A stretch of 46,755 bases of DNA from a virus (taxonomy: Duplodnaviria; Caudoviricetes), in IMG/VR virus record IMGVR_UViG_3300005573_000133, positions 1-46,755 of that record. One strand, given 5' to 3'. The number at the start of each line of letters is the position of its first letter. Within the stretch, counting starts at the first letter, position 1. A program made the translations under genes and the position numbers. Positions 3,491 through 42,848 of the stretch are shown here, piece by piece. The notes under the pieces are model-generated. The model was not told where the DNA came from and searched no databases. It saw only the letters and a list, made by a program, of their open reading frames with translations.

Positions 3491-5217
3491 TTACAGTAAG
3501 GAAATCTGGAGTACAAGGAAGCGTCGTAGCGGATCCTGGTTGTGTCCTCCGCTTGTGTCATGGTACACTCCCTACTTATAGTCATCTTCTTGTTGTTGTT
3601 TCAGCTGAGGGGAGTGAGAAGTTCGAGAAGGATGATATTGTAGAAGTGGTATTGGCAGATGATGGTGATGGTTCAACTAAGACATTATATGGATTCCGAG
3701 TAGTACAGTGCTCTGTAGTGGAACCACAAGAGAAACTATGTCATCTGGTACTAGCAGACTTCAGAGTAGTACTGGCTAATGTCTGTGCAGGGACGGACTA
3801 TAACATGTACTCACCACTCAGGGTACCTGGTGACTCTGTAGAACAGCCAGATTATTTACTAATTGGAGAGGAGAAAACATACCAGAACATAGCAGAGGAC
3901 ATAATTGACCTCACTGACTTTACTCTGTCAGGAGAGGACAACCTGAACGTGTCGTGGAATCCACGCCAATGGGCAGTGAAAAAGATGGCTGCTAGTGATG
4001 TACTTCAACTGATACTCAATGAAACTTTCTGTTTCATGACCATAGACGCTAGCTCAGAAACTGGTTCGATTGAGATTAGAAAGATAGGAGGTCCTAACAA
4101 ACTCGATCTAAGTAAACTGGGCTATATATTGGACCCTTATAGGAAGGGTGAAGTGGGCACGACTCATTTCAAAGGAGCAACTGGTGCGGTAGCGATAGGA
4201 AGCACTACAGATGACCCAGACGCGCCCCGCATAGAATACACCTATGATGGACCACTGTCTTGTACAACCATCACACGCTACGAGAAACTGCAATCGATGG
4301 GGATAACATGGAACAGAGACTGGCTTGATACACTGAAAGCGAATATCGAAGCTGCCCTAGAGTATTCGTGGTGGGATATAGATACCTATGAGTATACTAT
4401 TGCAGGGCATCATTACTTCTGGGGTTATGACAATGTACAAGAGATTACATGGACTTATGATGGCGAGGGGCTGCCCATAACCATACTGAAAGGCTATAGA
4501 CCAAAACCCAGAGAAGTGTACTATGAACCAGTTAGTACACTGCATTATTATGATGGTGTGGGAGAGAGATCCCCATTCCTAACTGGTACGATAACAAGCC
4601 TAGAACCACTAACAGCAGTACTCACTGGGGTTAGTGGTGCGACCTATCACTGGATCTTGGAAACACATCACTATGGAGGACATAAACTCAAGGTAGATGA
4701 TGTTGTTTACTTCCTACCTACTGGGTTTGAGATAGATGGAAATGTATGGAAAGGTTATGGGATTATATTTGACTATCCTTCTGTAGGTGACCTCATACTA
4801 GGTTATGTTGTGAAGGATGGGGGTAGTGAGGGGGGTTATGATAATAATGCTGGTTGGACTACTTGTTCCTTCACCTATAGCATTTATTTGCAGGAATCAG
4901 GAGGAGACCCAGTTGCGACAGGAGTGACCCCAGACACAGCCCGCATAGCAAACGTGGAATACACTACAATCACAGACAGACAGCCTGCACTTATTTATCA
5001 GGATGAAGAAAGTCATTGGCATATTTACCATGTTAGTGGTGAGGTTCCTGTTACTACTGTGAAGAAGATACCTATGTTAGGTGATAATGGAGTGCTTCGT
5101 CTGACACTGGTGAATAATAGTCCAGTACTCCAAGTGTACTTGGTTGAGGTACCTCTCTTCGAAACTGGTCCTGGTGAATGGACTACTTGGTATGATAGCT
5201 TCCTAACCTGTGAGTAA
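3487..5217 (+). CDS. Putative tail hub/baseplate protein
   Basis: 576 aa acidic ORF, ATGA-coupled to the previous gene, in the tail cluster. Confidence 0.5.
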   Translation: MITVRKSGVQGSVVADPGCVLRLCHGTLPTYSHLLVVVSAEGSEKFEKDDIVEVVLADDGDGSTKTLYGFRVVQCSVVEPQEKLCHLVLADFRVVLANVCAGTDYNMYSPLRVPGDSVEQPDYLLIGEEKTYQNIAEDIIDLTDFTLSGEDNLNVSWNPRQWAVKKMAASDVLQLILNETFCFMTIDASSETGSIEIRKIGGPNKLDLSKLGYILDPYRKGEVGTTHFKGATGAVAIGSTTDDPDAPRIEYTYDGPLSCTTITRYEKLQSMGITWNRDWLDTLKANIEAALEYSWWDIDTYEYTIAGHHYFWGYDNVQEITWTYDGEGLPITILKGYRPKPREVYYEPVSTLHYYDGVGERSPFLTGTITSLEPLTAVLTGVSGATYHWILETHHYGGHKLKVDDVVYFLPTGFEIDGNVWKGYGIIFDYPSVGDLILGYVVKDGGSEGGYDNNAGWTTCSFTYSIYLQESGGDPVATGVTPDTARIANVEYTTITDRQPALIYQDEESHWHIYHVSGEVPVTTVKKIPMLGDNGVLRLTLVNNSPVLQVYLVEVPLFETGPGEWTTWYDSFLTCE

Positions 5218-5220
5218 TAC

Positions 5221-5685
5221 ATGGGCGGCATAGCAATCCGAGATGGTAAGATAGTTTACTATCAGCCGGCAGGTCTGATAGCATATGGACTTTGCTGTGT
5301 TAGAGCGCCCTATCGATTGAGGTTAGTAGGAGATGAAGGTGTAACTCCATGCGAAGAGTGCGATGATTGGTCATATAATCCCTGGAATAATGAATTCACT
5401 CTGTACTATGACAGCCACCCCTGGTATGTGGAGTATGCTAATACAAATGCATCCTCTTACAAGGGCAAGGATATAGAGACTTGTTGGATGCATTTAGTAT
5501 ATACATGTAAGAGTAACACATGGACTCTAACACTGAAATGCATTAAACCTGAGCCGAGTCTTGAGTGTGTTAAAATCTGGGAGGGGACTAAGACAGGAGG
5601 TGATCCTGTTGGAACCTACACAAGAACAGATGGATGTGATGACACAGATACCCTCAGTATTGAGGAGGTTGAAGAAGGGTTGTAA
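5221..5685 (+). CDS. Cys-rich small putative tail-tip protein
   Basis: 154 aa, acidic, rich in Cys/Trp; end of the tail cluster. Confidence 0.45.
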   Translation: MGGIAIRDGKIVYYQPAGLIAYGLCCVRAPYRLRLVGDEGVTPCEECDDWSYNPWNNEFTLYYDSHPWYVEYANTNASSYKGKDIETCWMHLVYTCKSNTWTLTLKCIKPEPSLECVKIWEGTKTGGDPVGTYTRTDGCDDTDTLSIEEVEEGL

Positions 5686-5917
5686 GTGTGCTATGCGGGC
5701 GGGGCAGGCGTTCCTAGGCCTCGCTCGACCGCGGCCTGAGCTAATTAAGCAAAGAATCGAGGTATGTAGGGGATGTGAACATGCTACTAGGAATCCTGAC
5801 CCTAAGTACCTCGCGAATAAGGGGCTTACTACTAGGAGTGTTTGTACTAGGTGTGGTTGTCTCATAGTTCTTAAGACTCGTCACGAACAGGAGGTATGTC
5901 CAGATGGCAAATGGTGA
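5561..5917 (+). CDS. Small Cys-rich metal-binding protein (DUF6171-like); true start probably downstream
   Basis: Pattern R-x3-CxxC...CxxCGC-x4-K...CPxxKW at the C-terminus. Confidence 0.55.
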   Translation: MSVLKSGRGLRQEVILLEPTQEQMDVMTQIPSVLRRLKKGCKCAMRAGQAFLGLARPRPELIKQRIEVCRGCEHATRNPDPKYLANKGLTTRSVCTRCGCLIVLKTRHEQEVCPDGKW

Positions 5918-6104: not shown

Positions 6105-6109
6105 CCCCC

Positions 6110-6424
6110 CTAGCCGACCCACCAAAATTATCTAGCCGACCCACCATCTTTTTTTGCATAAAATCGCAGGTTTTGGCCTGTTTTTGAAGCCTACCCCAGT
6201 AAATCTAGGGCCTACCCACCAGTATATCTAGCCGACCCACCAGTATATCTAGCCGACCCACCAAAATTATTTAGCCTTTTCACCAGCTTTTTTGCCAGAA
6301 AATTGCCAGAATTTTGCGCAAAAAGTGCAGATTGGCTGATTAGCTCACTTTTCAATAGGGGTTTCCCACCGAGTCTGGGGCAGTCTCTGAGAATACCCCC
6401 AGTAAACCTAGGGATTACCCACCA
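6110..6424. repeat. Iteron-like direct repeats CTAGCCGACCCACCA
   Basis: Exact copies at 6110, 6132, 6228 and 6249 (21-22 bp spacing within pairs), plus degenerate TACCC(A)CCAGTAAA(T/C)CTAGGG copies near 6191 and 6394. Confidence 0.85.
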
Positions 6425-6552
6425 AAGGCATCTCTAACTCAATGGCATGAGGAAGTTCATTTTGGTGGGAAACCCCTAGATTTTGCGCAAAATCTGCGCG
6501 GCCCCGCATAGATACGCACATAAAGATTAGAGGGACGATAAAAATCCTTCTC

Positions 6553-6847: not shown

Positions 6848-6857
6848 TGAGGTGCAA

Positions 6858-7249: not shown

Positions 7250-7265
7250 CTCGGCTCCAGCACAC

Positions 7266-7697: not shown

Positions 7698-7754
7698 TCA
7701 TGAGTCATGAGTCATGAGTCAGAGTCACAAGTCCTTTAGGAAGGAGGTGTACCT

Positions 7755-10104: not shown

Positions 10105-10111
10105 GGTACTC

Positions 10112-10479: not shown

Positions 10480-10547
10480 CTATGCGGTCCTGGTGTGTGT
10501 TGGTAGGCTAAGTTTTTTGTTTGTCCCTTTCTTTACAGGAGGTTATT

Positions 10548-11125: not shown

Positions 11126-11761
11126 ATGCTCATCAGTAACAAAGTGTTCACTGGTGGTAAGAACTGCCTCACACTGGAAGGTGAGGATGATGTAGTCATA
11201 CGTGACTGTGCTTTTACAGACCCAGAAGGACCTGCAGATCCATATGGACATTGTCTGCAGCTGATCAGTTGTAGGAGAGTGCACATCAGCAGATGCGTCT
11301 TCACCAAGGGTAAGAGGAGTGAAGATGCCATCAATATCTTCAAGTCTCAGGGTGTTACCATAGCAGATTGCAGAGTATTGGGTACTGGTGAGTCAGAGTC
11401 AGGTAATGGTATTACCATTGACTATGGCTCAAGTGGAGTAACAATCACAAGATGTAAGATAAACACAGGGAACAAGTGTGGTATTGTAGTTGCTTATGGT
11501 TCACAACACCTCATCGTTGGCAACGACATAGATGCCGCCTGGATGGACATACTCGTTAGAGGATTCTACACCAAGGTAGGTAAGCCTACAGAGAATCCTA
11601 AAGTAGTGTGTCCAGTCACAGATGTGGTCATACACCACAACCGCCACCGCATAGAAATCGCACCACCGCCTTTCACACAGAGAGTGGAGGTGTCATATGA
11701 AGAGTCAGCCTCTCTACCCATATCAGGAGAGAGTCAGAAACTTCCTAAGAGAAAGGGATAG
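11126..11761 (+). CDS. Right-handed parallel beta-helix protein
   Basis: Repeated VxIxxCx rungs (VVIRDC, VHISRC, VTIADC, VTITRC) and EDAINI. Confidence 0.7.
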   Translation: MLISNKVFTGGKNCLTLEGEDDVVIRDCAFTDPEGPADPYGHCLQLISCRRVHISRCVFTKGKRSEDAINIFKSQGVTIADCRVLGTGESESGNGITIDYGSSGVTITRCKINTGNKCGIVVAYGSQHLIVGNDIDAAWMDILVRGFYTKVGKPTENPKVVCPVTDVVIHHNRHRIEIAPPPFTQRVEVSYEESASLPISGESQKLPKRKG

Positions 11762-13055
11762 AGCTGGTTGCTTCGTCTTCTATGGCGGTGGCAAAACTTA
11801 CTTGGCACTTCAGTGGTTGGAAGACCATGGTCTTCCAGCACCAGTGCTCATCTTGTGCCCCAAGACACTCATTCGTCAGTGGGGTAATGAGATAGAGAAA
11901 CACACTGACTGGGATTATATCATCCTAGGAAGTGATCCCAAAGAAGTGCGTGGTAAGAAGAAACTCATCTTCGAGGGCAGAGCACCCATAGTAATCACAA
12001 ACTATGAAGCATTTATGGGTGCGCGTAGGGATGTGATTACTGGTACTGCTTGGGGTGCTCTCATCATTGATGAGAGCACTGCGTTCAAGAATCCACGCAC
12101 ACTCCGCTTTAAGCACTACAAGAAGCTGCTGGTGAGACCACAGCACAGACTTCTCCTCTCAGGTGCACCTATCCTTGAAGACCTCATGGACATCTGGTCA
12201 CAGATGTACATGATGGATCTTGGTAAGACATTCGGTGATAACTTCTGGAAGTTCAGGACTGAATATTTCAATCCTGGACCTCCTTGGAAGCCATTCGAAT
12301 GGGTACCAAAGAAGGATGCAGTTGAGCGGATCACAGAGAAACTCCGCAATTCTTGCATCCTCGTCAGTAAGGATGGAGTAGAGAATGAATTACCTGAGAA
12401 GAGGTACATCCGCGTAGAGCTGCCACTACCAATGCCCACCCGCATAGCATACGAGGAACTGCGAAAGCAGTTCCGACTAGAGCTTGATGGGCAGCTAGTG
12501 GTGGATACTATGTGGGCAGCTGTGCGTGCCAATAAGCTGCATCAGATGGCACAAGGTTTCTTGTATGGACAAGAAGGTGGTGAAGCTCTGTGGCTTCACA
12601 ACCAGAAAGGAGAATGGCTTGCAGAGAGTATTCGCATGATAGTCAGGACAGGACCTACAATAGTGTGGGTCCCATACAAAGCACAGTTGGAAAGATTACA
12701 CCAGGAACTGGAGGTGTCTCATGTAGTACTTCATGGAGACATGACACAGGAAGAGAGGAATGCATCTGTGGAATGTTTCAAGAAAGGAGGCGTCGATGTC
12801 ATAATCATGACTATCGCCGCTGGCTATGCGGGTCTCAATTTGCCAGAGGCGAGCAACGCAATCTTCCTAGGATGCGATTTCTCAGCATCTCATAGAATGA
12901 ATGCTGAGGACAGGTGTCATCGTGTGAGTAGTAAGCACAAGTGTGTGACCTACTATGATGTTGTGTGTGCACATACTATAGATGTGCACGTACTGGATGT
13001 GCTGTCTGGTAAAGCAGAGTTAGCTGACGAGGTGGTTAAACACCTCAAGGAGTAA
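11697..13055 (+). CDS. SNF2-family (SF2) helicase
   Basis: LYPYQ, GGGKT, ITNYE, IIDEST, LLLSGAP, GLNL, AEDRCHR. Confidence 0.9.
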   Translation: MKSQPLYPYQERVRNFLRERDRAGCFVFYGGGKTYLALQWLEDHGLPAPVLILCPKTLIRQWGNEIEKHTDWDYIILGSDPKEVRGKKKLIFEGRAPIVITNYEAFMGARRDVITGTAWGALIIDESTAFKNPRTLRFKHYKKLLVRPQHRLLLSGAPILEDLMDIWSQMYMMDLGKTFGDNFWKFRTEYFNPGPPWKPFEWVPKKDAVERITEKLRNSCILVSKDGVENELPEKRYIRVELPLPMPTRIAYEELRKQFRLELDGQLVVDTMWAAVRANKLHQMAQGFLYGQEGGEALWLHNQKGEWLAESIRMIVRTGPTIVWVPYKAQLERLHQELEVSHVVLHGDMTQEERNASVECFKKGGVDVIIMTIAAGYAGLNLPEASNAIFLGCDFSASHRMNAEDRCHRVSSKHKCVTYYDVVCAHTIDVHVLDVLSGKAELADEVVKHLKE

Positions 13056-13359: not shown

Positions 13360-13389
13360 TTGCACCCCATGATGTTTGATGAATATAAT
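13360..13389 (+). promoter_or_regulatory. Sigma70-type promoter
   Basis: TTGCAC (13360) - N18 - TATAAT (13384), with an AT-rich UP-like tract upstream and a GGAGG SD downstream. Confidence 0.65.
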
Positions 13390-13404
13390 ATTTATGGAGG
13401 TGTG

Positions 13405-14283
13405 ATGGATGAGGAGCATCTTTCCATATCATGTAGTAGCGCAGGGTGTTTCCTTACATGTCCAAGGAGGTACTTCTACGAGTATGTAATGAGACTCTCC
13501 CCGAGGGAGGAGTATCACTACTTCCTCTGGGGTAAGCTAGTGCACGCCTATGCCAACTATGTTGACATGGGTGTGACAGAGCATGAAGATATAATGAAGG
13601 AGCTCGAGCAGGGTGAGTGTGCTGAACTTGCTAAGATATGCAGTTCATCTCTCAAAGCATTGTTCTTAGCACACCGCTTCAAGTACAGAGAAGAGGATAA
13701 GCACTACATAACCCTGGCGAGTGAAGTGAAGTTCAAGTATGACCTAACCTATGACACTAGCTTCGTAGGTCGGGTTGATAGGATAGTAGAAGACAAGAGG
13801 ACAGGTAAGAGGTATGTCTGGGAGCGCAAGACAGCTTCCCAGACGAGTACAACCTTCTGGAAGTACATCGAGATGAATCCGCAGACGCGAGGTTATCCAT
13901 TTGCAGTAGAAAGGACACTAGGACTGCAAGTGGATGGAATCATCTATGATGTACTCAAGAAGCCAGCACTGCATAAGAATGCACTGGAGACAGAAGAAGC
14001 ACTCCAGGAGAGAGTTGCTTATGCATACCTGGCTCGTCCAGAGGAGTACCTCATAAGGAAGGTGTTTCCACTGACACAGGAGCAGATTGATTCGTTTGAG
14101 TGGTGGCTCATGGGTGTCAGATCAAGTCTCAAGGAGGCTATGCGGTCTGGGTGGTGGGTGCCTCACCATCCGCCTATCTGGTATCCATGTCCATTCGAGC
14201 GTATCTGTCCAGACAATGATGCGTGTATATCGAATAGTTTCGTGTCTCGTCCCAGAGAGGAATTTCACAAGGAGCTTGTATGA
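13405..14283 (+). CDS. PD-(D/E)XK exonuclease (RecB/Cas4-like)
   Basis: CPRRYFYEY, GKLVH, E...GRVDRI...WERKT, QxxxY, C-terminal CPFERIC. Confidence 0.8.
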   Translation: MDEEHLSISCSSAGCFLTCPRRYFYEYVMRLSPREEYHYFLWGKLVHAYANYVDMGVTEHEDIMKELEQGECAELAKICSSSLKALFLAHRFKYREEDKHYITLASEVKFKYDLTYDTSFVGRVDRIVEDKRTGKRYVWERKTASQTSTTFWKYIEMNPQTRGYPFAVERTLGLQVDGIIYDVLKKPALHKNALETEEALQERVAYAYLARPEEYLIRKVFPLTQEQIDSFEWWLMGVRSSLKEAMRSGWWVPHHPPIWYPCPFERICPDNDACISNSFVSRPREEFHKELV

Positions 14284-14633
14284 AGGTCGAAGTGATTATC
14301 AGTGATGATGGTAGGAATCGTGCTGAGGCTTACATAAGAATCCTCAACAAGGAAGGTAAGCTCAGTACAGAGGACTTCATCAAAGCACTCAGTGCTGTCA
14401 TGAAGGTGGCAGAGAGGTGTGTAGAGAGACTTGCACGCCTCGTAGAGAGAAGTAAGGAACCTGAGTCCATGGAGAGGTATGTCTCCGATGTGTACGAACA
14501 AGTCACTGCTAGGATTATGAAGATCATAACCCAGCAAGCACAAACACAACCAGCACCAGCACAACCAACGCCAACACCACCTGAACTGAAGCCTGAGGAC
14601 TTCCAGGGAGATGATGATGCTAGTAAGCAGTAA
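14280..14633 (+). CDS. Hypothetical protein
   Basis: ATGA-coupled, 117 aa. Confidence 0.6.
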   Translation: MKVEVIISDDGRNRAEAYIRILNKEGKLSTEDFIKALSAVMKVAERCVERLARLVERSKEPESMERYVSDVYEQVTARIMKIITQQAQTQPAPAQPTPTPPELKPEDFQGDDDASKQ

Positions 14634-15420
14634 GTCAGTACCAGAATCTGATCCTAGGAAGTACCTCACCACAGTGATAGGTGATGCTGGTGTAGGTAAG
14701 ACTACATGGGCATCGCACATAGAAGGTGCGTACTTCCTAATGACAGAGATGGGAACACAAGGTGTCTCTGTCAGAGGTGAACCAATTCTTAGCTGGCCTG
14801 CATTCAAAGAGAAGTTGAATGAGATATGGCAGGCTAGAAAGGATGGCTGGAAAGATGTGGAACCTATAACGAGCATCGTTGTAGACACCTATGATGTACT
14901 ATTCGACATGGTAGGTCAGTGGGTGTGCGAGAACGAACAGTTCGTTATAGAGGGACGCCCTACAAGGTACACCAAGATAGATGATGTACCTTTTGGCAAA
15001 GGATACGCTCGTGTGAGCCAACTGCTACTAGGCGTAATCACACGATTCCACCTAGCTGGATTCGGTGTGTTCCTCCTGTGTCACTCTAAGGAACGCGTAG
15101 TGCGGTGGAAGGGACAAGCAGTCATGATGTATGGACCGCGATTGAGTCCCTCCGCTTCAGAGGCACTGATCAATGCCTCAGGTGCTGTAGGTTACTTCAG
15201 AGTGGAGCAGGAGGTAAGAAAGGAAGGTGACGAGATCGTCATCGCAAATGAGAGACGCGTACAGCAATGGCAACCTACGTTTCAAGTGGCAGCTAAACAT
15301 AGATTGCCAGGGTTTCCAGCGGAGCTGCCATTAACAAGACTTGAAGGTTGGCAGACATACTGTCAAGCGTTCAAGGAGGCGTACGAGAAGGAGGTTCAAA
15401 GCATTGGCACTAGAAGCTAA
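14611..15420 (+). CDS. AAA_24/Sak4-like ATPase (recombination)
   Basis: GDAGVGKTT, IVVDT, FGKGY, LLCH, AKHR; lies between nuclease and SSB. Confidence 0.8.
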   Translation: MMMLVSSKSVPESDPRKYLTTVIGDAGVGKTTWASHIEGAYFLMTEMGTQGVSVRGEPILSWPAFKEKLNEIWQARKDGWKDVEPITSIVVDTYDVLFDMVGQWVCENEQFVIEGRPTRYTKIDDVPFGKGYARVSQLLLGVITRFHLAGFGVFLLCHSKERVVRWKGQAVMMYGPRLSPSASEALINASGAVGYFRVEQEVRKEGDEIVIANERRVQQWQPTFQVAAKHRLPGFPAELPLTRLEGWQTYCQAFKEAYEKEVQSIGTRS

Positions 15421-17800: not shown

Positions 17801-18645
17801 AGATATGCATGATCACACCGCCAGCTGACGTAGGACTCACATCTCTATTTCCTGGGAGGTTCTGCTTGGCACAGGTTGCCAAGGAACACAAGGAGTATGC
17901 AGATTACTTCAAAGGATGCAAAGATGTAATAATGGACAATGGCATGTATGAGGGGAAGCCATTGGAATGGTATGAGTACTCCGAGGTCATCTATCAAGTG
18001 CGTCCCTCGATAGTCATCGCACCAGATGACTTCCAGGATACATTTGAAGCGAGTTATGACAAAGCAATACAGTTCAGAGACTACATGCTAAGAACAGCAA
18101 CACTAGTGCCAAACAGTTACATGCCTGACATTATGTGGGTACCACAGGTAGGTAGATACAATGATGTATCCTTCGTTGACTTCATTGACTTTGTCAATGG
18201 TCAGAAGGATTTCGCCTCCATAGGTATCAACAAGCTGGTAGCACCAGCTCTGTTTGGTACTCCATGGGTGGGTGATTCCATGAGGGAGGTACTCAGGATA
18301 GCATTGGTGTCCAAGCTGGATACTAATCGCAAGTACATACACTGCTTGGGTATCACAGATACTCTGGGAGCACTGCGCGTTTATAACCAGCTTGGCGTAG
18401 AGTCTCTGGACAGTGCATCCTTCTACTGGCTTCCTTTCAAGGGGAAGCACATACAGAGGGATCTGGATTGGCGCATGATAGACTCAGAAGGTCGACCTCA
18501 AAACTTCTTCGAGTTAGAAGCGACCTCGGAGCAAGAACATGACATCGTTGAGTTCGCACAAAGAGTACAAAGCTTTCTTGACGGGAAGCACTCATTGGAC
18601 GGACCTGGACACCTACCCTATAGAATGCGTAGGAAACTCCAATAA
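17794..18645 (+). CDS. TGT-fold protein, putative DpdA-like deazaguanine DNA transglycosylase
   Basis: IMDNG, APD, VPQ, IHCLG, SLDSAS motifs typical of TGT-like TIM barrels; located between folE and the polymerase. Confidence 0.6.
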   Translation: MLKICMITPPADVGLTSLFPGRFCLAQVAKEHKEYADYFKGCKDVIMDNGMYEGKPLEWYEYSEVIYQVRPSIVIAPDDFQDTFEASYDKAIQFRDYMLRTATLVPNSYMPDIMWVPQVGRYNDVSFVDFIDFVNGQKDFASIGINKLVAPALFGTPWVGDSMREVLRIALVSKLDTNRKYIHCLGITDTLGALRVYNQLGVESLDSASFYWLPFKGKHIQRDLDWRMIDSEGRPQNFFELEATSEQEHDIVEFAQRVQSFLDGKHSLDGPGHLPYRMRRKLQ

Positions 18646-26221: not shown

Positions 26222-26245
26222 GCTCAAAATTCCTTGGAAAACTGC

Positions 26246-26351
26246 GTGGGACTTCTTCATTGGACATGCTGGTTTCAAAAAAAGTTTATAAAGTAACAAG
26301 AGATTTTAAAAACTTTTTTTAAAAACAGCATGTCCAACGAAGAAGTCCCAC
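26246..26351. repeat. Long AT-cored inverted repeat, candidate replication origin
   Basis: 49 bp arms (26246-26294 and 26303-26351), 5 mismatches, 8 nt spacer; intergenic directly after the primase-helicase. Confidence 0.8.
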
Positions 26352-26402
26352 ACAAAAGTTCAAGCAAAGCACACCGCACCCGCATAGCCAAAAAGAATTT
26401 TG

Positions 26403-26920: not shown

Positions 26921-27140
26921 TGCTCTCTTGGAGAAGTCAGAGAACATCCAGATACTGTCTGATGGACTGGAGAATGCTCTCCGCACTAACCCAGTTGGCT
27001 TCTTCAAAGCGATCATTCTCCCTACACTCCCCAAGGAGACACTCATCTCAGTAGACCAACAGTCTGATAGCCCCATCCGCATAGAACTGGTTCCCAAGGT
27101 CATCAGCAGCAGCTGCAGCAGCGAGGAGCAACAGAAATGA
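26880..27140 (+). CDS. Hypothetical protein (possibly terminase small subunit-like)
   Basis: GAGGTG SD; NPVGFFKAIILPTLPKE resembles segments seen in small packaging proteins. Weak functional call. Confidence 0.4.
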   Translation: MRVSGRKLAIQALDALLEKSENIQILSDGLENALRTNPVGFFKAIILPTLPKETLISVDQQSDSPIRIELVPKVISSSCSSEEQQK

Positions 27141-27721
27141 AGCGTATATATGGACCTGTGCAGACTACTAGTGATGAACCAGTACTCGCTGGTACCTTCT
27201 CTGGAGGAACAGCGAACATAATCCGCATCTACAATGGAGGTGAAGCACCGCTCTACTTCTCTCTGAATGACTGTAAGAGTTGGTACTTCATGGCGGGTCG
27301 TGCTATCTATCAACTGCACGGCGTTAATCACAAGGATGCTAGTGTCTACATCCGCAGAGAGGGTGGAGGTGTCAATGTAACGAATTGCTACGTTGAGATT
27401 TCAGACGGACCAATCCGCTCTCCGCAGGAGTGGATTGCTCTCGGATGCTATCGTCAGCACAGCGATGATGTACTCACTGCTACGGGGACCACTGTGTACA
27501 CATACCAAGCCCCGCATAGCGGCGTCAAAGCTGTGAAGATACAGATTGTGAGCGGGAATGGTCTCCTCGTTCGACATGACATTGGAGAAGGAGACCCTAA
27601 TGCTGGTTCTCTGCGCGTGACTCAGAGCGAGTGGCTCCTCTTCGATGAGATGAAGCCAGTCATCAAAGTCAAGAGCGTAGATGGAACCACCACGACTTTT
27701 GTACTCATATGGGCGAGTTAG
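27137..27721 (+). CDS. Putative virion structural protein
   Basis: 194 aa, beta-rich, coupled within the late operon. Confidence 0.5.
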   Translation: MKRIYGPVQTTSDEPVLAGTFSGGTANIIRIYNGGEAPLYFSLNDCKSWYFMAGRAIYQLHGVNHKDASVYIRREGGGVNVTNCYVEISDGPIRSPQEWIALGCYRQHSDDVLTATGTTVYTYQAPHSGVKAVKIQIVSGNGLLVRHDIGEGDPNAGSLRVTQSEWLLFDEMKPVIKVKSVDGTTTTFVLIWAS

Positions 27722-28383
27722 TACAACATCCCGTCCCCGTCCATACTAGCAATGATGGTGGCAGTGTGAAGTGCTGGAGCACCGCTGTCACCATCCTGAT
27801 AATGTGGCTGCTGTTCCTCTCCACTGGATGCACTCACACCCTGCCCTCACATGCAGATATGCAGCAGCCACAGAGAGAAGCAACATCTGTCAAAACATAT
27901 CTGGATGCTGTGGAGACAGATGCTAAGAACCTCCAGCCACACGTTATGCAGAGCGGTGTTGCTCTGTACAAGTCTATGCTGGAAGGGATAGAGAAGCTTA
28001 AGGCCACAGTAGAGCGGCTCATCGTTGGGATTGACACCCAGACCCGCATAGCACAAGAGCAGGAGCGTCAGCTCCAGAGACTCCAGGATTTGTCACGCAC
28101 GCTCCACCGAGCTCTCTTCTTGGGTCTGGTAGTGTTAGCTGCTGGTGCTGTGGTTCTCTTAGTTCTCAAGTTGACTACTCTCGGTTTAGCCATGGTGGTG
28201 TTCGGAGGAGTGCTTGCCATCGGTGCAGTTGTTCTCGTACGCGTGTACGAGGTGCCCTGGTGGTTGTGGGCCTGCGCTATTGTGTTGTTGGTAGTGGGTG
28301 TAGTTCAGGTCATCGTCGATGCCGTCCGCCGCGGGTCTCTCAAAGAAGCACTCCTCACACCGCCATGGGAGGATTGGAAGTGA
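27709..28383 (+). CDS. Lipoprotein-signal, coiled-coil, multi-TM membrane protein (spanin/holin-like)
   Basis: Hydrophobic stretch ending LSTGC (lipobox-like), heptad region, then 3 hydrophobic helices. Confidence 0.55.
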   Translation: MGELVQHPVPVHTSNDGGSVKCWSTAVTILIMWLLFLSTGCTHTLPSHADMQQPQREATSVKTYLDAVETDAKNLQPHVMQSGVALYKSMLEGIEKLKATVERLIVGIDTQTRIAQEQERQLQRLQDLSRTLHRALFLGLVVLAAGAVVLLVLKLTTLGLAMVVFGGVLAIGAVVLVRVYEVPWWLWACAIVLLVVGVVQVIVDAVRRGSLKEALLTPPWEDWK

Positions 28384-28384
28384 G

Positions 28385-28678
28385 ATGAGCAATATCGATG
28401 AATTGCATGCTAAGGTAGATGCTATTGCTTCGGATGTTCACCGCATAAGTACTATCCTTATAGGGAATGGACATCCTCAGAATGGTATGGTTGTGCGCCT
28501 AGACAGAGTAGAGCGGAGGATGGATACTCTGCAGTGCGCCTCACACGACGAGAGGATGACCCGCATAGAGAAGTCCATCAATAAGGCACTTCTCATTTAT
28601 GGTGGTATTGCTGTGGGTCTTGGTTTGCTGGCTAACATCCAGCAAGTACTTGCATTTGTGAGGAAGGTGATACAATGA
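28385..28678 (+). CDS. Coiled-coil protein with C-terminal TM (holin/XhlA-like)
   Basis: GNG...GMVVRLDRVE; C-terminal ALLIYGGIAVGLGLLA. Confidence 0.5.
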   Translation: MSNIDELHAKVDAIASDVHRISTILIGNGHPQNGMVVRLDRVERRMDTLQCASHDERMTRIEKSINKALLIYGGIAVGLGLLANIQQVLAFVRKVIQ

Positions 28679-28860
28679 CAGAGACAGAAATCAGAAGGAT
28701 CATAGTTGAGCCCGTTACTAAGAAGGTACTTGTCCAGATGGTGGACAAGAAAGAGATTGAGGGACGCACATACATAAGCCCCCGCATAGCAACCCTTGAC
28801 CTGGACAAGGATGATGATGCGAAGGCTTTCCTCAGTGCAATACAGGCTAAGGTAGAGTAG
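28675..28860 (+). CDS. Hypothetical protein
   Basis: 61 aa, ATGA-coupled. Confidence 0.55.
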   Translation: MTETEIRRIIVEPVTKKVLVQMVDKKEIEGRTYISPRIATLDLDKDDDAKAFLSAIQAKVE

Positions 28861-28864: not shown

Positions 28865-30022
28865 ATGGCTACTTGTACAAGAACAGACAGGGGTGCTTGG
28901 GAAGATGAGTATTGGGATCCCTCTCCTCCTGGAGAGTATGATACTGCGGATCTCAATGGCTACTATGTTACTCTCAACTCGTATGTGACAGTAGCTAGTG
29001 TTACTTCTAGTGCGGGTGGGGGTTATGTGACTATAGGAAGTGGTGGTTCCCTCACCACCTCCACAGTAGTGGGAAGTCAAGACAATCTCATTGAAGTGAA
29101 CGGTGGCTCTCTGTATGTGACTTCGTCTGCTACACAGAATAGTACGAGTTACACGGACTTCCTAATTCATGTTGTTAGTGGTTATTGTGATGTAAAGGAT
29201 CCCTCAGGAAAAGTATTGTACATAACTGAGAGTGGTAATGGCAGTGCTACTGTAAGAGGTACCATCTATCAGGGGACTGCTTCCAACTATGTAATCTGGG
29301 CGCGCGGTACTGGTACCATAAGTTTCGATGTAACCTCAATATGGGGAGACCTTGGATGGACTCCTATTTGGATAGATGGTGCCACAGCAGTGGGGTCTAT
29401 TGTAGGAGGTGACCGTGCAATCCTCTATATGTCAGCTGGTCGACTGGGTGAAAGTTCAAGTAATCCCCTCCTAGTGTATGCGAGTGCAGAGAGTTCACAA
29501 GGTAGTATACCTATTGTAGTCAGTGATGGTATAGTCGAAGCACTACGCATAATAGGTGAGATAGGTGACTATGTAAATAGGTCCCTTCTTGAGATAAGTG
29601 CAACTGGTTCTCATCATGTGGAACTCACTGTCACCTCTGGGGACCTTAACTATACAGGGATAATAGCGCTGTGGGCTGGTTCTTTGGAGGTTACAGGTGA
29701 TGTGACTATAGGTAATACGAGTAGTATTGTGTACATGGGTCCTGGTGCCTCATCAGTCACCCTCAAGTGCAAGATTACGATGGATATCTGTGCATTGCCT
29801 ATCTATGATGAGAGTACAGCTGGTACGCTGTACTATGTAGCGCCTAACATGATTGAAGCGATGACTATTAAGAGTGATGGTAGTGACCAGAAACTGGAGT
29901 TGCCAGACTATCCCTCAGCGGATTCAATCAAGAAAGGTGTCACAGCTAGGTTCTCTACTATAACAGGTACGTACCAGGGTGGAGGTGGTGGAGGTGGTCA
30001 CATGAGTCATTTGTATGGGTGA
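28865..30022 (+). CDS. Beta-rich Ser/Thr/Gly virion protein (fibre/spike-like)
   Basis: 385 aa with beta-solenoid-like composition; C-terminal YPSADSIKKGV...ITGT. Confidence 0.5.
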   Translation: MATCTRTDRGAWEDEYWDPSPPGEYDTADLNGYYVTLNSYVTVASVTSSAGGGYVTIGSGGSLTTSTVVGSQDNLIEVNGGSLYVTSSATQNSTSYTDFLIHVVSGYCDVKDPSGKVLYITESGNGSATVRGTIYQGTASNYVIWARGTGTISFDVTSIWGDLGWTPIWIDGATAVGSIVGGDRAILYMSAGRLGESSSNPLLVYASAESSQGSIPIVVSDGIVEALRIIGEIGDYVNRSLLEISATGSHHVELTVTSGDLNYTGIIALWAGSLEVTGDVTIGNTSSIVYMGPGASSVTLKCKITMDICALPIYDESTAGTLYYVAPNMIEAMTIKSDGSDQKLELPDYPSADSIKKGVTARFSTITGTYQGGGGGGGHMSHLYG

Positions 30023-31454
30023 GAATGTACTCAGGTTTGAGTATCTTCCTAAGCAGGGTCAGTTCTTCGAGAACTGTGACCGAGTCGTACACTCTGCATA
30101 TATAGGTGGCTTTGGTAGTGGTAAGACCTATGCGTTGTGCATACAAGCATTGCGTGCAGCAGCGCACTACGGTGCTGGTTCTCTAGGCTTAATTGGTGCA
30201 CCTACCTATAAGATGCTCTCTGATGTAACGCAGAGAACCTTTCTCAGGCTCTGTCCTCCTCAGTGGATTAAGGTCTATCACAAGAGTAGTAACAAGATCA
30301 TTCTCAAGAATGGTGCTGAAATCCTCTTTCGTTCACTGGAGAACGAAGAGAGATTGGCAGGTCTCACACTAGATTGGTGGGGTCTGGATGAGGTTGGCTC
30401 TGTAAAACTCGATACTTTCAGGATGTTGCAGGGAAGGATGCGTGGGAACCAGCGTTGTATTGGGTTCTGTGTAGGGAACCCCGCTGGTCCCACGCACTGG
30501 ACTTATGATTATTTTGTTGTAGAAGCACAGAAGAGACCTGAGAGTTATGCGCTGGTACAAGCACCTACACTGGAGAATGTCTTCCTCCCGAAGCAGTACA
30601 CAGAGGAAATGAAGGGTTCTTTCAAGGAAGGAACACCTTACTATCGCAGATATGTACTGGGAGAGTTCGTTGCATTTGAGGGTGCATACTGGGGTGACTT
30701 CGATTTGCGTCCCTATCCTGATGGATTGGTGTGTACAATCGATGATATTTGGAACAGTTCCATCCTCGATAAGAGCAGTAAATGGACATGGGGACGCGTG
30801 ATTGACTTCGGATTTGAGCATCCCTTCGTGTGTCTCTGGTATGTGTGTGATGGTCGAAAGATTATTTTCTTTGATGAGTACTATCAACGCCATCGTACAA
30901 TGAGAGAACATGGAGCAGCTATTCGTGCAAAGGATGTAGAACACTGGGAGAAGTATGCGTTCCCAATACCTCAGCATGCATACACAGACCATGATGCTCA
31001 GGCCAGGGCAGAGCTGGAGCATCTGGAACTTCCAGGAGTTGGCAGAGCGGGTATCTTTTGTGTGCCCGCAGAGAAGGAAGTGATGGATGGAATCCTCCTA
31101 GTACAGACATTGATACTAACTAGGAGGATCTTCGTTACGAAGAATTGTACACAAACCTTGAGGGAGATTCCTTCCTATCGTGCAAAGCCAATAGAGAAGT
31201 GTAAGGATGAGAAGCCCCTCAAGGAGAATGATGACTGTTGTGACTGCGTAAGAATGGCTTGTTCATGTGAGTTGGAGCATGTCGCACCCTGGAGGAGAGC
31301 TGAAGGTGCGCGAAGGATTCTGGGTGATCCTGAAGACATAAAGATCGAGGAGCTCCCCAGACCACCTGACCCCAACCGCATAGCAAACCCTGACATGCCC
31401 TACGTGAGGATCCAACATGGCATTGGAGCCTTTGACAAGACCCCGACCATCTGA
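30015..31454 (+). CDS. terL: Terminase large subunit
   Basis: GGFGSGKT Walker A, APTYKML, GLDE Walker B, GNP, DFGFEHP, DDCCD nuclease acids; directly upstream of the portal. Confidence 0.92.
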   Translation: MGENVLRFEYLPKQGQFFENCDRVVHSAYIGGFGSGKTYALCIQALRAAAHYGAGSLGLIGAPTYKMLSDVTQRTFLRLCPPQWIKVYHKSSNKIILKNGAEILFRSLENEERLAGLTLDWWGLDEVGSVKLDTFRMLQGRMRGNQRCIGFCVGNPAGPTHWTYDYFVVEAQKRPESYALVQAPTLENVFLPKQYTEEMKGSFKEGTPYYRRYVLGEFVAFEGAYWGDFDLRPYPDGLVCTIDDIWNSSILDKSSKWTWGRVIDFGFEHPFVCLWYVCDGRKIIFFDEYYQRHRTMREHGAAIRAKDVEHWEKYAFPIPQHAYTDHDAQARAELEHLELPGVGRAGIFCVPAEKEVMDGILLVQTLILTRRIFVTKNCTQTLREIPSYRAKPIEKCKDEKPLKENDDCCDCVRMACSCELEHVAPWRRAEGARRILGDPEDIKIEELPRPPDPNRIANPDMPYVRIQHGIGAFDKTPTI

Positions 31455-32898
31455 TAATGGGGATCAGCAAGCGCTACTGAAGGAGTATCAGCGCATTCGT
31501 GCGGATTATCTAGCACGAATGCAGACTAATACTGTAGCACCACCTATAACAGATGCTCATGGGTTTACCTGGAAGCAAGGGATTCCCCTCACTGAGCGGT
31601 GGGCTGGGTTTGATAAGGTATTCTGGACACTGATTGCGGGTGTAGTTACTGACCCTGACTACGCCCTCCGCAAGGATCCCAAGGTATACATGAGGATGCT
31701 GAGGGATCCTCAGATATATTACTGTTTGGAGGTTAGAAAGGCTGCTACTACTGGCCTCCCGTGGGTGGTGAGACCTCCAGATGATTTCATGAATGATCCT
31801 CAAGCATTGGAGTTTGCCAATGCAGCAGAGCGGAGGTTGAAGAAGATTAGCAACATCTCTGAGATGTTCTCTAATCTGATGGACGCTCTTTTGCCAGGTA
31901 TGGCGGTAGTTGAACTGGTTTGGGGACTGGATCCTGACTCAGGGGAGTATGTTGTGAAGGAACACTTCCCTGTGTGGAAGGACAGGTTTGTGTTCGATAA
32001 GGATGGGAATCTCCGCCTCAAGACTAGGAACTCACCTGTAACTGGTGAACCTGTACCGTCCTATAAGTTCATTCATCACATATTCAATGTAAGTGATGGT
32101 AGTTGGCTGCGTCCAGAGGAGATGGGATACTGCTACTTCGGTAAAGGTCTCGCAGATACACCTCTCTATCACTACTTCTACTTCAAAGTAGTGACGCTCA
32201 GATACCTACTCAAAGCGTTGGAGCAGTATGGTCTGCCCTTCAAGCTGTTGTATACTGGACCTCAGAATGCACTCCTCGCACAGAGGATGGCAGATATCAT
32301 GGCTGCACTGCAGAATGACAGTGTGGTGCAGGTACCTGGTAAGAAGGGAGAGGTGAATGTTGATGTAGTGAAGAGCACAGGTAGTGTTGATTTCTTCATT
32401 TCCTTCATTGAATACATAGACAGACTCATTACAAGAGCAATACTCGGTCAGGAGTTGATGACCGAGATGCCAGATGTAGGTAGCTATGCGGCTGCCAGGG
32501 TGCATCGTAGTGTCTTCATGCAGATTGTTGAGAGTGATAAGAATCAGTTGGAGGACACGATCAACAAGACACTGATGAAGTATGATGCAGCCCTCAATAC
32601 ACCGCAGCTCCCAGAAAAGGTACGACCCAGGTTTCTGTTCAAGAGTGCACCATCTACAGATGCTGCTGCCTTCCTGCAGGTGGTCAATGCTGCTATCAAT
32701 CTGGGTCTAGAAGTGTCTGAGGCTCAGATAAGAGAGGCTACAGGATTGAGAGAACCCTTCCCTGGTGAGGCAACTGTCTCTCAGCAGAAGATACAAATGA
32801 TGCAGATGATGATGGCTGGTGGAGGTCAGCCTAACAATGCCAGTACCGAACAGGAAGGAACAGCACAATCCAAAGTACATAAGAACGCTCGAAGGTGA
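31417..32898 (+). CDS. Portal protein, Mu gp29/DUF935-like
   Basis: DA...G.AVVELVW, GxGL, EQYGLP, ITRAILGQELMTE..GSYAAARVH. Confidence 0.88.
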   Translation: MALEPLTRPRPSDNGDQQALLKEYQRIRADYLARMQTNTVAPPITDAHGFTWKQGIPLTERWAGFDKVFWTLIAGVVTDPDYALRKDPKVYMRMLRDPQIYYCLEVRKAATTGLPWVVRPPDDFMNDPQALEFANAAERRLKKISNISEMFSNLMDALLPGMAVVELVWGLDPDSGEYVVKEHFPVWKDRFVFDKDGNLRLKTRNSPVTGEPVPSYKFIHHIFNVSDGSWLRPEEMGYCYFGKGLADTPLYHYFYFKVVTLRYLLKALEQYGLPFKLLYTGPQNALLAQRMADIMAALQNDSVVQVPGKKGEVNVDVVKSTGSVDFFISFIEYIDRLITRAILGQELMTEMPDVGSYAAARVHRSVFMQIVESDKNQLEDTINKTLMKYDAALNTPQLPEKVRPRFLFKSAPSTDAAAFLQVVNAAINLGLEVSEAQIREATGLREPFPGEATVSQQKIQMMQMMMAGGGQPNNASTEQEGTAQSKVHKNARR

Positions 32899-37029: not shown

Positions 37030-39413
37030 TGAATCCTCTGGAAGTGCAATTGTTGATGCAGTTTCCTTTCCTGCAAAGTATGCCAGAGCAGTTGAGGAGT
37101 CTCTGGATTAGTTCCCTGCTCAGTTCTCAGCAGGAACCTGTTAAGTATTGGAGAGGCCTAGAACATGGAACAGATGCCTACATCCGCCTTGTGTCACAAC
37201 TGTCGAATCTTCCAGAGGGAGACCCAAAGGCATTACAGACAATCGAAGCTATCAAGGGATTGGACTCTAGTCTGAGGAAGGGTACTTGGTCTGTTAAGGA
37301 GGGGAGACAGAGATCACTTTGGATACCATCACCTGAGGGAGGTAAGTTCAGAGATTTCTCGAAGTGGACCGAGGACCCTGTGCTCAGGAAACTGGTGAAG
37401 AAAGCAGTGCATACTAGGACTAAGGAACCAGAAAGGATTTGGGAGAGGATTAGGACATATGGAGATATAGCATACCATCCTCGTCGCAAGAATCCCTTTC
37501 CGCGGGAGTACATCAATGCACTAGCAATGATTGCTGGTCGTTCTGCGAAGGATCCATATGCGAAGGAGGGCTTGGAAAGACTGCAGAAGATAAAGGAAGT
37601 GTATCCTGAGATACCAATACCAATGCCATGGAAGGAAGGGAAGACTTTCAGTGGTATGGAAGACCTCTTCAGGGTAGGTTCTGGAGCTCAGTGGAAGGTT
37701 CGGCGAGCTTTCCACCCCTTGCTAAATTCTCGCAGGAGACAGAAGCTATTGGAACATGTTTCCAAGGTTGGTGAGTTCGTTGGTCTTCCAGAGAAAGGAA
37801 AGAGTTATGCAGCACCACTTCCGAAGGAGAAGTGGAAGCTTCCTCCCACAGGATGGCAGGCTAAGGGTCATGCATATGCAGACTTAATAAAGATATTGTC
37901 TGGAAGGAAGACGAGGGATCCTATCGCAGCGATGGCAATATCTAATATTCATACGATGGGATTCCCTGATGCTGTGATAAAGGAAGTTAAGGGTGGTAGG
38001 TATGCAAACATAAAGTTCAAGAAGCCAGATGTTGAGAAGGATCTTGCCAAAGTATTGAGAGTGCATAGTAGGGACCCTCTAGCGGCGTTGGGACATCTGA
38101 AAGAACTTGTTGATATAGAGGAGGGGACGAATGAGGAGTACAGTCTGAGAGAACCAAAGGCTACTTGGTATCTCAAGAATCTGATAGCACTCTCTCAGAG
38201 GGGTTGGTCTCAGAGTAAAGAGGACAAGATGAGGTGGAGGCTTCCTCACGCGTGGATACCAGAGAGGAATGCGAGAGGTGAGTATCCTAAGTTCCGAGAA
38301 GTAGTGCCAGCAGAAGCGTTCCGCCAAGCACAGATACTACTGAGGAAGAATACCTCAGAAGAGAGGAGAGAGCAAGCGGTCCAGAAACTGAAAGAGCTAC
38401 TGCTGCCCTCCCCAGACCAGGACCGCATAGCACCAGAGACCTATGGTTACAGACCAAAATGGCATGAGTATCATAGGATGGTATCCTTCCTACAGGGGAT
38501 GTCACATGATGACCCCAAAGCAATTGAGATGTGTAGGAAGATTGAGGAGATGTTTGGTACTGAGGCTGTACCTCTCCCAGATGATAGGACGAAGAAGTTC
38601 CCTGAAGTAGATACTAGCAGAGTGACTAAAGCACTAGCACATGCAATTCGTAGTCGTGCTCCTGCTGAGAAGAAGAAGGGGGTATGGGCAAGGATAAAAC
38701 AGAAGATGATCAAGACTATTGGTTATGAACCTATGGGTTCTATTGTTAGAGGTGGTCCTCCTCCTTCGGCAGACCCATACAAGAAAGGGTTTGAAAGTCT
38801 GCTAGAGAGTATGGAAGTTGCTCTTCCTCATGCACCAGGACAAGTACCAAGGAAGTTAGGAAAGATAGTACCTGGTTGGGGTGGTAGTTGGGGTTCGTCT
38901 GTCATAGGTCCTGGTCAATACCATCCAGAAGATGTGAAGATAGGTGAGGGCTTCCATATAGCCAAGTTCAAGTCTAGGGAGGCTATGTTGGCTTATGCAG
39001 ATGGAGTGGCTGAGGGAATGACAAACCCGAATCCTCCCCCACCGCAGCAGCAACAGCAGCCATTCTGGAGGAAGAAAAAGAAGTGGGATTTGGGTAGGAT
39101 ACTCAGATTGGAACCTGTAGCAACTGCTCTGAGGGGTATGACTAGGGAAGCTCTGAGCAGGTTGAATACCTATGTTCCTCTTCCTAAGGTGACTGTGGAT
39201 AAGACTCCTGTGAATCCTAGGGGTTACTTCAAAGGATTCTCGGGTAGGTCGAATCTTGAACTACAGCTCATGAAGAATAGGTTGGAACACATGGCAGCGA
39301 GAGAAGGTATGGACACAGCACGTCGGGAAGAGCTTAGGAAGCATATAAGTAGGTTGGATATTGAGTTGAATGCGCGTAAGAATGCTGCGCCCTCATATGG
39401 GCCTTACTTCTAA
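37029..39413 (+). CDS. Large basic protein with degenerate ~100 aa repeats (putative internal virion protein)
   Basis: 794 aa, K/R-rich; recurring Y-x2-hh-x2-h-x-(G)-x4-DPxA pattern. Confidence 0.7.
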   Translation: MNPLEVQLLMQFPFLQSMPEQLRSLWISSLLSSQQEPVKYWRGLEHGTDAYIRLVSQLSNLPEGDPKALQTIEAIKGLDSSLRKGTWSVKEGRQRSLWIPSPEGGKFRDFSKWTEDPVLRKLVKKAVHTRTKEPERIWERIRTYGDIAYHPRRKNPFPREYINALAMIAGRSAKDPYAKEGLERLQKIKEVYPEIPIPMPWKEGKTFSGMEDLFRVGSGAQWKVRRAFHPLLNSRRRQKLLEHVSKVGEFVGLPEKGKSYAAPLPKEKWKLPPTGWQAKGHAYADLIKILSGRKTRDPIAAMAISNIHTMGFPDAVIKEVKGGRYANIKFKKPDVEKDLAKVLRVHSRDPLAALGHLKELVDIEEGTNEEYSLREPKATWYLKNLIALSQRGWSQSKEDKMRWRLPHAWIPERNARGEYPKFREVVPAEAFRQAQILLRKNTSEERREQAVQKLKELLLPSPDQDRIAPETYGYRPKWHEYHRMVSFLQGMSHDDPKAIEMCRKIEEMFGTEAVPLPDDRTKKFPEVDTSRVTKALAHAIRSRAPAEKKKGVWARIKQKMIKTIGYEPMGSIVRGGPPPSADPYKKGFESLLESMEVALPHAPGQVPRKLGKIVPGWGGSWGSSVIGPGQYHPEDVKIGEGFHIAKFKSREAMLAYADGVAEGMTNPNPPPPQQQQQPFWRKKKKWDLGRILRLEPVATALRGMTREALSRLNTYVPLPKVTVDKTPVNPRGYFKGFSGRSNLELQLMKNRLEHMAAREGMDTARREELRKHISRLDIELNARKNAAPSYGPYF

Positions 39414-40038: not shown

Positions 40039-40039
40039 T

Positions 40040-40318: not shown

Positions 40319-40329
40319 CTGGAGGTAAT

Positions 40330-42381: not shown

Positions 42382-42410
42382 TAACAATGGTAAGACGGTA
42401 AGGAGGATAT

Positions 42411-42848
42411 ATGGCTCTGACAGCGAATGTAGGTTCTAACCTACAAGCCAAGATGGGCGACATCCAGGCGTACACTGTAGGTACAGGTGCTAACATCTAC
42501 AGAGGTGCGCTGGTAGCGATTCGCTTGACTGATGGTTGTGCATACCAAGCAGTCAACGATGTCAATGACGAGTATAAGCAGCTCATTGTTGGCTATGCGT
42601 TGGAGGCAAAAACATCGGGAGAGGTACGCGTGCGTCGTGATGTGAAGTTGCGGCTGAACTTCAATGGCGTGATTTCACCCACTGTAGTAGGTCGGTTGGC
42701 GTGCCTCTACGATGATGAGACAGTTCAGTTGTATGACCCTACTAAATGTAGAGTAGTGGTGGGGCGAATCTCAGAGATTACAGGAAATCAGGTCTATGTG
42801 GACCTGAGAGAACGCCCCAACCGCATAGCAACGGGACTTTATGACTGA
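42411..42848 (+). CDS. Capsid decoration/cement protein (DUF2190-like), copy 1
   Basis: IYRGALV, GYA, DDETV, VVVGRI, VYVD; upstream of MCP. Confidence 0.7.
   Translation: MALTANVGSNLQAKMGDIQAYTVGTGANIYRGALVAIRLTDGCAYQAVNDVNDEYKQLIVGYALEAKTSGEVRVRRDVKLRLNFNGVISPTVVGRLACLYDDETVQLYDPTKCRVVVGRISEITGNQVYVDLRERPNRIATGLYD

Follow-up and report, generated by a model that had tools for sequence, protein, structure and literature searches.

The phage genome IMGVR_UViG_3300005573_000133, an entire virus record of 46,755 bases without terminal repeats (the whole stretch, which we call the window), carries 26 copies of the octamer CCGCATAG. The copies share a C/A-rich 5' flank and crowd in mirrored orientation around an AT-rich palindrome behind the gene of a primase-polymerase (prim-pol) fused to a superfamily 3 (SF3) helicase. 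We lean toward reading the word and its flank as a single-strand recognition site where this enzyme, its candidate reader, starts DNA strands. We favor such a site because selection at the word acts on DNA and the cluster mirrors around a palindrome that was defined without the word, and because one relative, G002, keeps the layout with a changed word and another, G004, which has another primase, has another word.

The word is selected as DNA

A preliminary description of this DNA had listed 17 plus-strand and 9 minus-strand copies of the octamer, and all 26 coordinates were exact on recount.

Copies of CCGCATAG in the window:
4227..4234, plus: dispersed
4941..4948, plus: dispersed
5691..5698, minus: nearest copy on the left of the second repeat-rich locus
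6504..6511, plus: intergenic, 21 nt right of the inverted repeat of the second locus
10480..10487, minus: dispersed, intergenic
11647..11654, plus: dispersed
12440..12447, plus: dispersed
12824..12831, minus: dispersed
14138..14145, minus: dispersed
20559..20566, plus: dispersed
22524..22531, minus: dispersed
24232..24239, minus: origin-proximal cluster
25039..25046, minus: origin-proximal cluster
25068..25075, plus: CCGCATAG(A), the sole discordant member of the origin-proximal cluster
25853..25860, minus: inside the helicase gene, codons G-A-M-R-W
26380..26387, plus: intergenic, 13 nt right of the palindrome
26800..26807, plus: origin-proximal cluster
27077..27084, plus: origin-proximal cluster
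27512..27519, plus: origin-proximal cluster
28044..28051, plus: origin-proximal cluster
28561..28568, plus: origin-proximal cluster
28782..28789, plus: origin-proximal cluster
31376..31383, plus: dispersed
32484..32491, minus: dispersed
38423..38430, plus: dispersed
42821..42828, plus: dispersed

Against these 26 copies, Markov models predict between 0.65 (order 2) and 2.8 (order 4), and no 8-mer of the genome outranks CCGCATAG at order 2; at orders 3 and 4 only the overlapping CGCATAGC does. Inside genes, 23 copies compare with a mean of 0.82 and a maximum of 4 in 1000 synonymous shuffles of the 55 called genes. The enrichment claimed earlier thus holds under both a Markov and a codon-aware null. 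So do two further claims: the base after the octamer is always C (20 copies) or A (6 copies), and the 15-nt 5' flank is C/A-rich, with 72% C/A and 9% T versus 51% and 25% at strand- and frame-matched positions, a level reached in 0 of 5000 resamplings. The signal therefore exceeds the octamer and comprises 15 C/A-rich bases followed by the 9-nt core CCGCATAGC, whose G-rich complement is GCTATGCGG with a G/T-rich 3' flank; the window holds 38 copies of CGCATAG, 26 of CGCATAGC and 20 of CCGCATAGC. Less folding than in the background is seen for the motif strand (p=0.014) but not for the opposite strand (p=0.37).

The synonymous-shuffle null bears out the earlier proposal that no protein motif causes the word, but not the ground given for it, that the word falls in several reading frames: 14 of the 15 coding plus-strand copies share the frame x-R-I-A/E, because one other frame would create a stop codon. 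CGC ATA encodes 15 of the 24 R-I-[ADEGV] tripeptides, whereas CGC makes up 118 of 949 arginine codons, and R-I-A occurs 13 times versus 3.8 expected, 10 of these with CGC ATA. This excess and this codon preference show that the word shapes the proteins and not the reverse; selection at the word acts on DNA, not on protein. A loose end in folE that carries the word in three sequencing runs was set aside, as it fits the conserved P-R-I-V codons of another organism.

The word mirrors around an AT-rich palindrome behind the prim-pol gene

Three features frame the arrangement of the copies:
24010..26181, plus: primase-polymerase/SF3 helicase with archaeo-eukaryotic primase (AEP) Prim-Pol, PriCT-1 helix bundle, D5_N, P-loop helicase and predicted C-terminal winged helix; candidate reader of the word (Pfam, model)
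26230..26367, no strand: AT-rich inverted repeat with 63-nt arms, 83% complementary; likely replication origin (fold z=-7.75)
30015..31454, plus: terminase large subunit (terL), closing an origin-to-terminase interval with seven plus copies of the word (Pfam)

The palindrome starts 49 bases behind the prim-pol gene, and the lowest-GC 100-nt window of the genome falls in it; it is likely the replication origin. The 2.5 kb on either side of it contain 11 of the 26 copies, where 2.8 would be expected (p=0.002 by a scan statistic with a 5-kb window), and 10 of these 11 are plus on its right or minus on its left (p=0.006). With the strand split fixed at the palindrome, Fisher's test gives p=0.024. 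The tallies of the preliminary description were also right: 11 copies fall between 24.2 and 28.8 kb, and the plus strand carries 10 of the 11 to the right, the minus strand 8 of the 13 to the left. In the interval from the palindrome to terL, the C-rich word is on the top strand in 7 of 7 copies. GC skew is positive along the whole genome and does not locate an origin, because the plus strand carries all genes of the window. Contig depth is higher near 26-28 kb in three runs and was left unused, since summed depth cannot separate an origin, a packaging start and strain overlap.

The prim-pol gene has the features expected of the partner of an AEP site of the NrS-1/pRN1 type, a cognate AEP with a helix-bundle (PriCT) domain and intact catalytic residues: the acidic D83, D85 and D128 as well as H109 are invariant in the alignment. 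Pfam matches are strong for Prim-Pol (E=2.5e-35), and for PriCT_1 just under the cut-off (E=3e-4; E=2.6e-9 in the G002 orthologue). A model predicted from a six-sequence alignment (predicted local distance difference test 74.5, predicted template-modeling score 0.44) shows AEP, helix bundle, D5_N, SF3 helicase and a C-terminal winged-helix pattern, and its fold matches are viral prim-pol/D5 helicases and the primase-helicase of SaPI5 (7ola), a Staphylococcus aureus pathogenicity island (SaPI). The N-terminal domain had zero matches at E<=1 among PDB sequences. A poly-glycine run of the helicase (window 25528-25579), not present in the relatives, is encoded by a G-rich tract whose length differs between strains; the complement of this tract is C/A-rich like the flank of the word, and it may be under selection at the DNA level.

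A second locus shares part of this layout:
6110..6483, no strand: repeat-rich intergenic locus with direct repeats CTAGCCGACCCACCA and an inverted repeat at 6404-6483

It sits between the tail and early genes, contains CCCACC seven times at 6.1-6.4 kb and is possibly a second origin. Splitting the octamer by strand between two origins, counted by hand, gave 17 of 26 concordant copies, no better than 18 of 26, and was abandoned.

Some relatives keep the layout with a changed word

Alignment scans found four syntenic phages (G001-G004). Single-protein scans of IMG/VR with the window prim-pol and PolA gave no matches, and the best matches to named phages were below 35%.

The G002 prim-pol is ~40% identical to that of the window, and the G002 word, CCTCAAAGC, is identical to CCGCATAGC at 7 of 9 places. 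It occurs nine times versus 0.65 expected, seven times in genes versus a codon-null mean of 0.8 and maximum of 4 (300 shuffles), with a flank of 75% C/A; among G002 8-mers it comes first when enrichment and flank are scored together. In G002 the prim-pol gene is directly followed by an AT-rich palindrome and, 16 nt on, by a plus copy of CCTCAAAGC, as the copy at the origin-like locus of the window follows at 13 nt. A minus copy falls on helicase codons orthologous to those at 25853 (G-A-M-R-W in the window, G-A-L-R-W in G002). The G002 locus homologous to window 6.1-6.5 kb, ~26 kb from the first, has two further inverted copies of the palindrome (L237:6321-6574), and a plus word copy follows there too. 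Three metagenome contigs near G002, not independent of it, show the same layout. The word of G002 is the most similar of all, though G002 is no closer than G003 or G004 in exonuclease, Sak4, SNF2, PolA and TerL identity.

In G003, a large palindrome with CCTTAC repeats is followed by the candidate word CGCTAACT. G004 encodes a non-orthologous primase at the same gene position (L243:686-2875; AEP-TOTE, RepB' C-terminal helix and AAA, the RepB' match being weak at E=0.001, below the cut-off), and its word, CCCCCTGTGCTT, occurs eight times versus 0.006 expected for a 10-mer and contains GTG, a known AEP site, 3' of a C run. An opposed pair of this word lies at L242:18382-18419. Across six palindromic loci in four phages, the right neighbor is a plus copy at 13-51 nt in five (mean spacing 1.8-7.2 kb) and the left neighbor is a minus copy at the same five, with G004 as the misfit; the limits of these loci were set after the words were seen, and the figure is descriptive.

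Beyond the record of the window itself, we found no enrichment of CCGCATAG among the matches listed for sets of 79, 154 and 80 loci (27 short loci of the last set were only counted). Two unrelated prim-pol virus records have abundant words of their own: GACAAGTC with 26 copies in 32 kb and no polarity in G005 (L244-L245), and, in G006 (L246-L248), CCCTGGCC with 44 copies over 58 kb, the last 18 of which share one strand in all but one case. In another P4-type primase group, TGTGGAT is 2.7-6.4-fold above expectation on both strands in 10 of 15 loci, which were picked from the 79-locus set and include several close kin:
L012, L016, L017, L019, L020, L066, L068, L075, L076, L080: P4-type primase loci sharing TGTGGAT

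Comparison with known priming sites

The primase of phage NrS-1 is reported to start at the specific 8-nt site TTTGGTTA, with the primer beginning at the base 5' of the site, and to use GTGG and GTGA as well, GTGG being the stronger (PMC8718748). This precedent had been invoked together with the statement that the NrS-1 site is enriched in its genome. The specific site stands; the enrichment does not, as TTTGGTTA occurs once with 2.0 expected. Its single copy lies ~150 nt past the end of the primase gene, in a 310-bp stretch where 11 GTTACACT repeats of either orientation cluster (L454:17062-17370, overlapping the published priming site). NrS-1 also has TTGTCTAT dispersed 15 times (2 expected). 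NrS-1 thus supports an origin behind the gene, not genome-wide enrichment of a word. Like NrS-1, the window phage joins AEP, helix bundle and D5-type helicase in one chain of 720 residues and has a site in an AT-rich, repeat-rich locus immediately downstream of the gene, where the minus strand at 26380 reads TTTGGCTA, 7/8 identical to the NrS-1 site, which may be chance. Unlike NrS-1, with its single, unenriched 8-mer, the window has 26 copies of its word, a 15-nt flank and a spread over kilobases, and the phage encodes its own PolA.

The RepB' primase of RSF1010 likewise primes sequence-specifically at dedicated sites, ssiA and ssiB, as described in PMC4538821; there are two such sites in that account versus 26 here, and the hairpin is absent around the window word. 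Precedents exist both for sequence-specific AEP priming and for palindromic origins located behind pri-rep genes (PMC4538821, PMC5862659). Particular to this phage are a word anchored at the palindrome and a natural variant pair; we found no paper on a genome-wide primase word in phages, in a literature search that left subscription journals largely uncovered.

A proposed mechanism of strand initiation

If the word is a place where the prim-pol/helicase starts DNA strands, the helicase would open the palindrome, and the first copies to turn single-stranded would be the plus copy 13 nt to the right and the minus copies on the left. The primase would bind CCGCATAGC and use the C/A-rich bases on its 5' side as template for a G/T-rich primer that starts with G. 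This primer would run back across the origin to become the leading strand of the opposite fork. Its extension would fall to the family A polymerase:
18539..20407, plus: family A DNA polymerase with 3'-5' exonuclease domain (Pfam)

Redundant early starts would come from the copies clustered within 2.5 kb of the palindrome, and those dispersed over both strands, with a median gap of 1.3-2.3 kb, would act as Okazaki or restart sites. We favor the C-rich strand as template because AEP enzymes begin their primers at the site or 5' of it, because GP55 of phage 1706 is reported to start with GTP in CCAAC (PMC12205980) and because the G004 word has a C run 5' of GTG. The opposite strand may be the template instead: TTTGGCTA is one base from the NrS-1 site, and G/T-rich flanks are reported to raise T7 primase binding (PMC12839067).

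Several observations weigh against a strand-start site. Beyond 2.5 kb of the palindrome, 8 of 15 copies are concordant, which is the chance level, and a permutation test of the strand switch with two free changepoints gives p=0.25; for these reasons the polarity of the word is a local feature of the palindrome, not a genome-wide one. The strand bias switching at 26.3 kb that had been described holds within ~2.5-5 kb, not as genome-wide lagging-strand polarity, and replichore polarity from one origin is unsupported beyond that distance. Known AEP sites span 3-8 nt, and a 9-nt core with a 15-nt flank is longer. The G001 enzyme is the most similar to that of the window (helix bundle 71%, AEP domain 55% identical), and G001 has one exact copy of the word in 17.3 kb versus 8 in 12.5 kb of syntenic window sequence. 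Among 256 words of the pattern CC.C..., CCGCAGA scores best in G001, with 8 copies against 1.35 expected; it is a weak candidate with neither C/A flank nor polarity, and may be a weak variant of the word. No palindrome was found within 320 bases downstream of the G001 gene. The G003 word is marginal (6 copies), and the primase is not on the G003 contig. The G004 word is not anchored at its own AT-rich palindrome (3.8 and 1.7 kb off, with the left copy discordant), half of its copies lie outside called genes, and it may be a regulatory site. With five family members in IMG/VR, there are too few for a phylogenetic test. The evidence on whether the word changes with the primase is mixed: the G002 orthologue goes with a 7/9 match, G004 has another primase and another word, and G001, with the closest primase, offers a weak variant only. 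Of the earlier interpretation, the relatives strengthen two parts, an origin at 26.3 kb and a reader that is a phage replication enzyme; genome-wide polarity and the appeal to NrS-1 enrichment fall away.

Alternative readers of the word

The main rival, not named in the preliminary description and in our view unlikely, is a Chi-like site of the host, with the G-rich strand GCTATGCGG and its G/T-rich 3' flank read by an AddAB/RecBCD-type enzyme. The word would protect phage ends or breaks near 26.3 kb and feed recombination, and each relative would carry the Chi of its own host. All family words, that of G004 included, end in G-x-G-G on the G-rich strand, a further point against a priming site, and the Chi sequences given for B. 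subtilis and E. coli are AGCGG and GCTGGTGG (PMC4614115). As in the Chi-rich phages described in PMC3784561 and PMC12315714, the window has an asymmetric octamer in genes, a G-rich strand ending in GCGG and crowding between origin and terminase: lambdoid Chi sites are reported to crowd between the origin and the packaging site (PMC3784561), as the seven plus copies do from the palindrome to terL. The same source reports that phages with a recombinase and no inhibitor still over-represent Chi, and the window phage has its own recombination module:
13360..15420, plus: PD-(D/E)XK exonuclease and Sak4-like annealing protein (Pfam)

In addition, the G-rich words aim at the palindrome from both sides, and the weak signal of G001 despite its similar primase fits a word set by the host. 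The orientation is nevertheless the reverse of that in Chi-rich lambdoids, where the G-rich word precedes the packaging site on the top strand and is nearly one-stranded (20 versus 3, 32 versus 0; PMC12315714); here, between the palindrome and terL, the C-rich word is on top, and the strands divide 17 versus 9 genome-wide. A Chi site also gives no reason for a copy 13-51 nt from an AT-rich palindrome.

Candidate host genomes show no enrichment like that of the phage. In run X3, two contigs join phage sequence (13676 and 26425) to the same CRISPR repeat, presumably of type I-E, which amounts to two spacers targeting the phage. This repeat is present in 43 stretches of 32 genomes, by their titles mostly Planctomycetota, Chloroflexota and Armatimonadota; none of the 32 has a spacer matching the window, and two, both Planctomycetota, have capsid homologues. 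We searched these 32 genomes, through which alone Chloroflexota were sampled, together with 401 of the G021 class and 251 of the G014 phylum. CCGCATAGC reaches at most ~20 per Mb in them (read by eye from tables; the tally of 401 holds without one unpublished genome), versus 428 per Mb in the phage. Three Armatimonadota genomes, those with the highest ratio to control, have the 9-mer 1.4-2.9-fold over a rough Markov estimate made from 30 kb each, and their flanks are not C/A-rich and T-poor (30 sites read). The density of a DNA uptake-type word, hundreds per Mb, was not found in any genome searched, though the host may lie outside the set. For these genomes the result excludes an uptake-type word and not Chi, because Chi is reported to be enriched only ~2.3-fold in E. 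coli (PMC3784561).

It is less probable still that the word is a double-strand iteron of the SaPI/P4 style, bound by the winged-helix domain of the same primase-helicase for helicase loading and not for priming. SaPI origins are described as lying downstream of pri-rep genes, with iterons that flank an AT-rich core in opposite orientations (bioRxiv 10.64898/2026.10.17.759575). The window resembles them in its AT-rich, origin-like core downstream of a primase-SF3 helicase gene, in the opposite orientation of the word on the two sides and in the predicted C-terminal winged helix, and the enriched octamer of NrS-1 forms such a cluster. The C-terminal domain is the most diverged part of the enzyme (21-22% identity), which would explain G001; that of G002, however, is 21% identical and its word still matches at 7/9 places. 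SaPI iterons are 5-7 nt long and lie within ~300 bp in that description, whereas one copy of the word falls within 300 bp of the AT-rich core, the next follow at 377 and 433 bp, and the others spread over 5 kb and the whole genome, mostly inside genes. The palindromic loci hold separate short repeats that would fit iterons better (CCCACC at 6.1-6.4 kb, CCTTAC in G003), and a 15-nt, low-information C/A-rich flank suits single-stranded use.

The densest run of the word upstream of terL, the region where many phages start packaging, two intergenic plus copies that precede gene blocks and the G004 copies outside called genes could suggest a site for another phage protein, such as the small terminase or a transcription regulator, but this is very improbable: 23 of 26 copies lie in genes, 9 run against the one direction of transcription, and the helicase gene itself contains mirror copies. 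Nor do similar words go with similar terminases, and no sigma-70-like promoter was found at 26.0-27.0 kb.

Other features of the genome

The window encodes a Mu-like portal and capsid, terminase, PolA, ligase, SNF2 helicase, PD-(D/E)XK exonuclease, Sak4, the prim-pol/helicase and a 7-deazaguanine pathway (FolE, QueD, QueE and two QueC). The 7-deazaguanine genes with the two QueC paralogues (9400-10104, 16193-18645 and 20410-21003) are common to all four relatives; among them, a gene of 283 residues at 17794, without Pfam or PHROGs match, lies where we would presume a base-exchange enzyme. A small early-region gene (9059-9391) matches Pfam Cas_VVA1548, a putative CRISPR-associated protein (E=1e-11), and a head-module protein of 688 residues (40315-42381) has about six internal repeats of 60-65 residues. 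Strain contigs are without window 322-965, 1010-1728, 7264-7741 and 10095-10442, variable regions that include a duplicated gene pair (7266-7697 and 10112-10447). The 22-30 kb stretch is present in two hot-spring runs and one sediment run, no RNA dataset being among the runs listed for it, and an Rfam search gave zero matches.

Implications

Primase sites usually come from laborious template screens, and for NrS-1 the tested site and the site used in vivo remain under debate. This phage offers a predicted site and a predicted origin for a thermophilic prim-pol, along with the variant pair CCGCATAGC/CCTCAAAGC, which makes the specificity of the helix-bundle domain directly testable. Should the word be Chi of the host after all, the gain would be a Chi sequence from an uncultured lineage. 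More tentatively, the family may consist of two-origin, word-coded replicons, in which each primase-helicase would be paired with a private 9-letter priming word and a C-rich primer template, placed beside AT-rich palindromes about half a genome apart and written into coding sequence at a cost in amino acids. Its specificity would then be readable from genomes and swappable between lineages, and the hot-spring member may have strengthened its word for G-rich, heat-stable primers.

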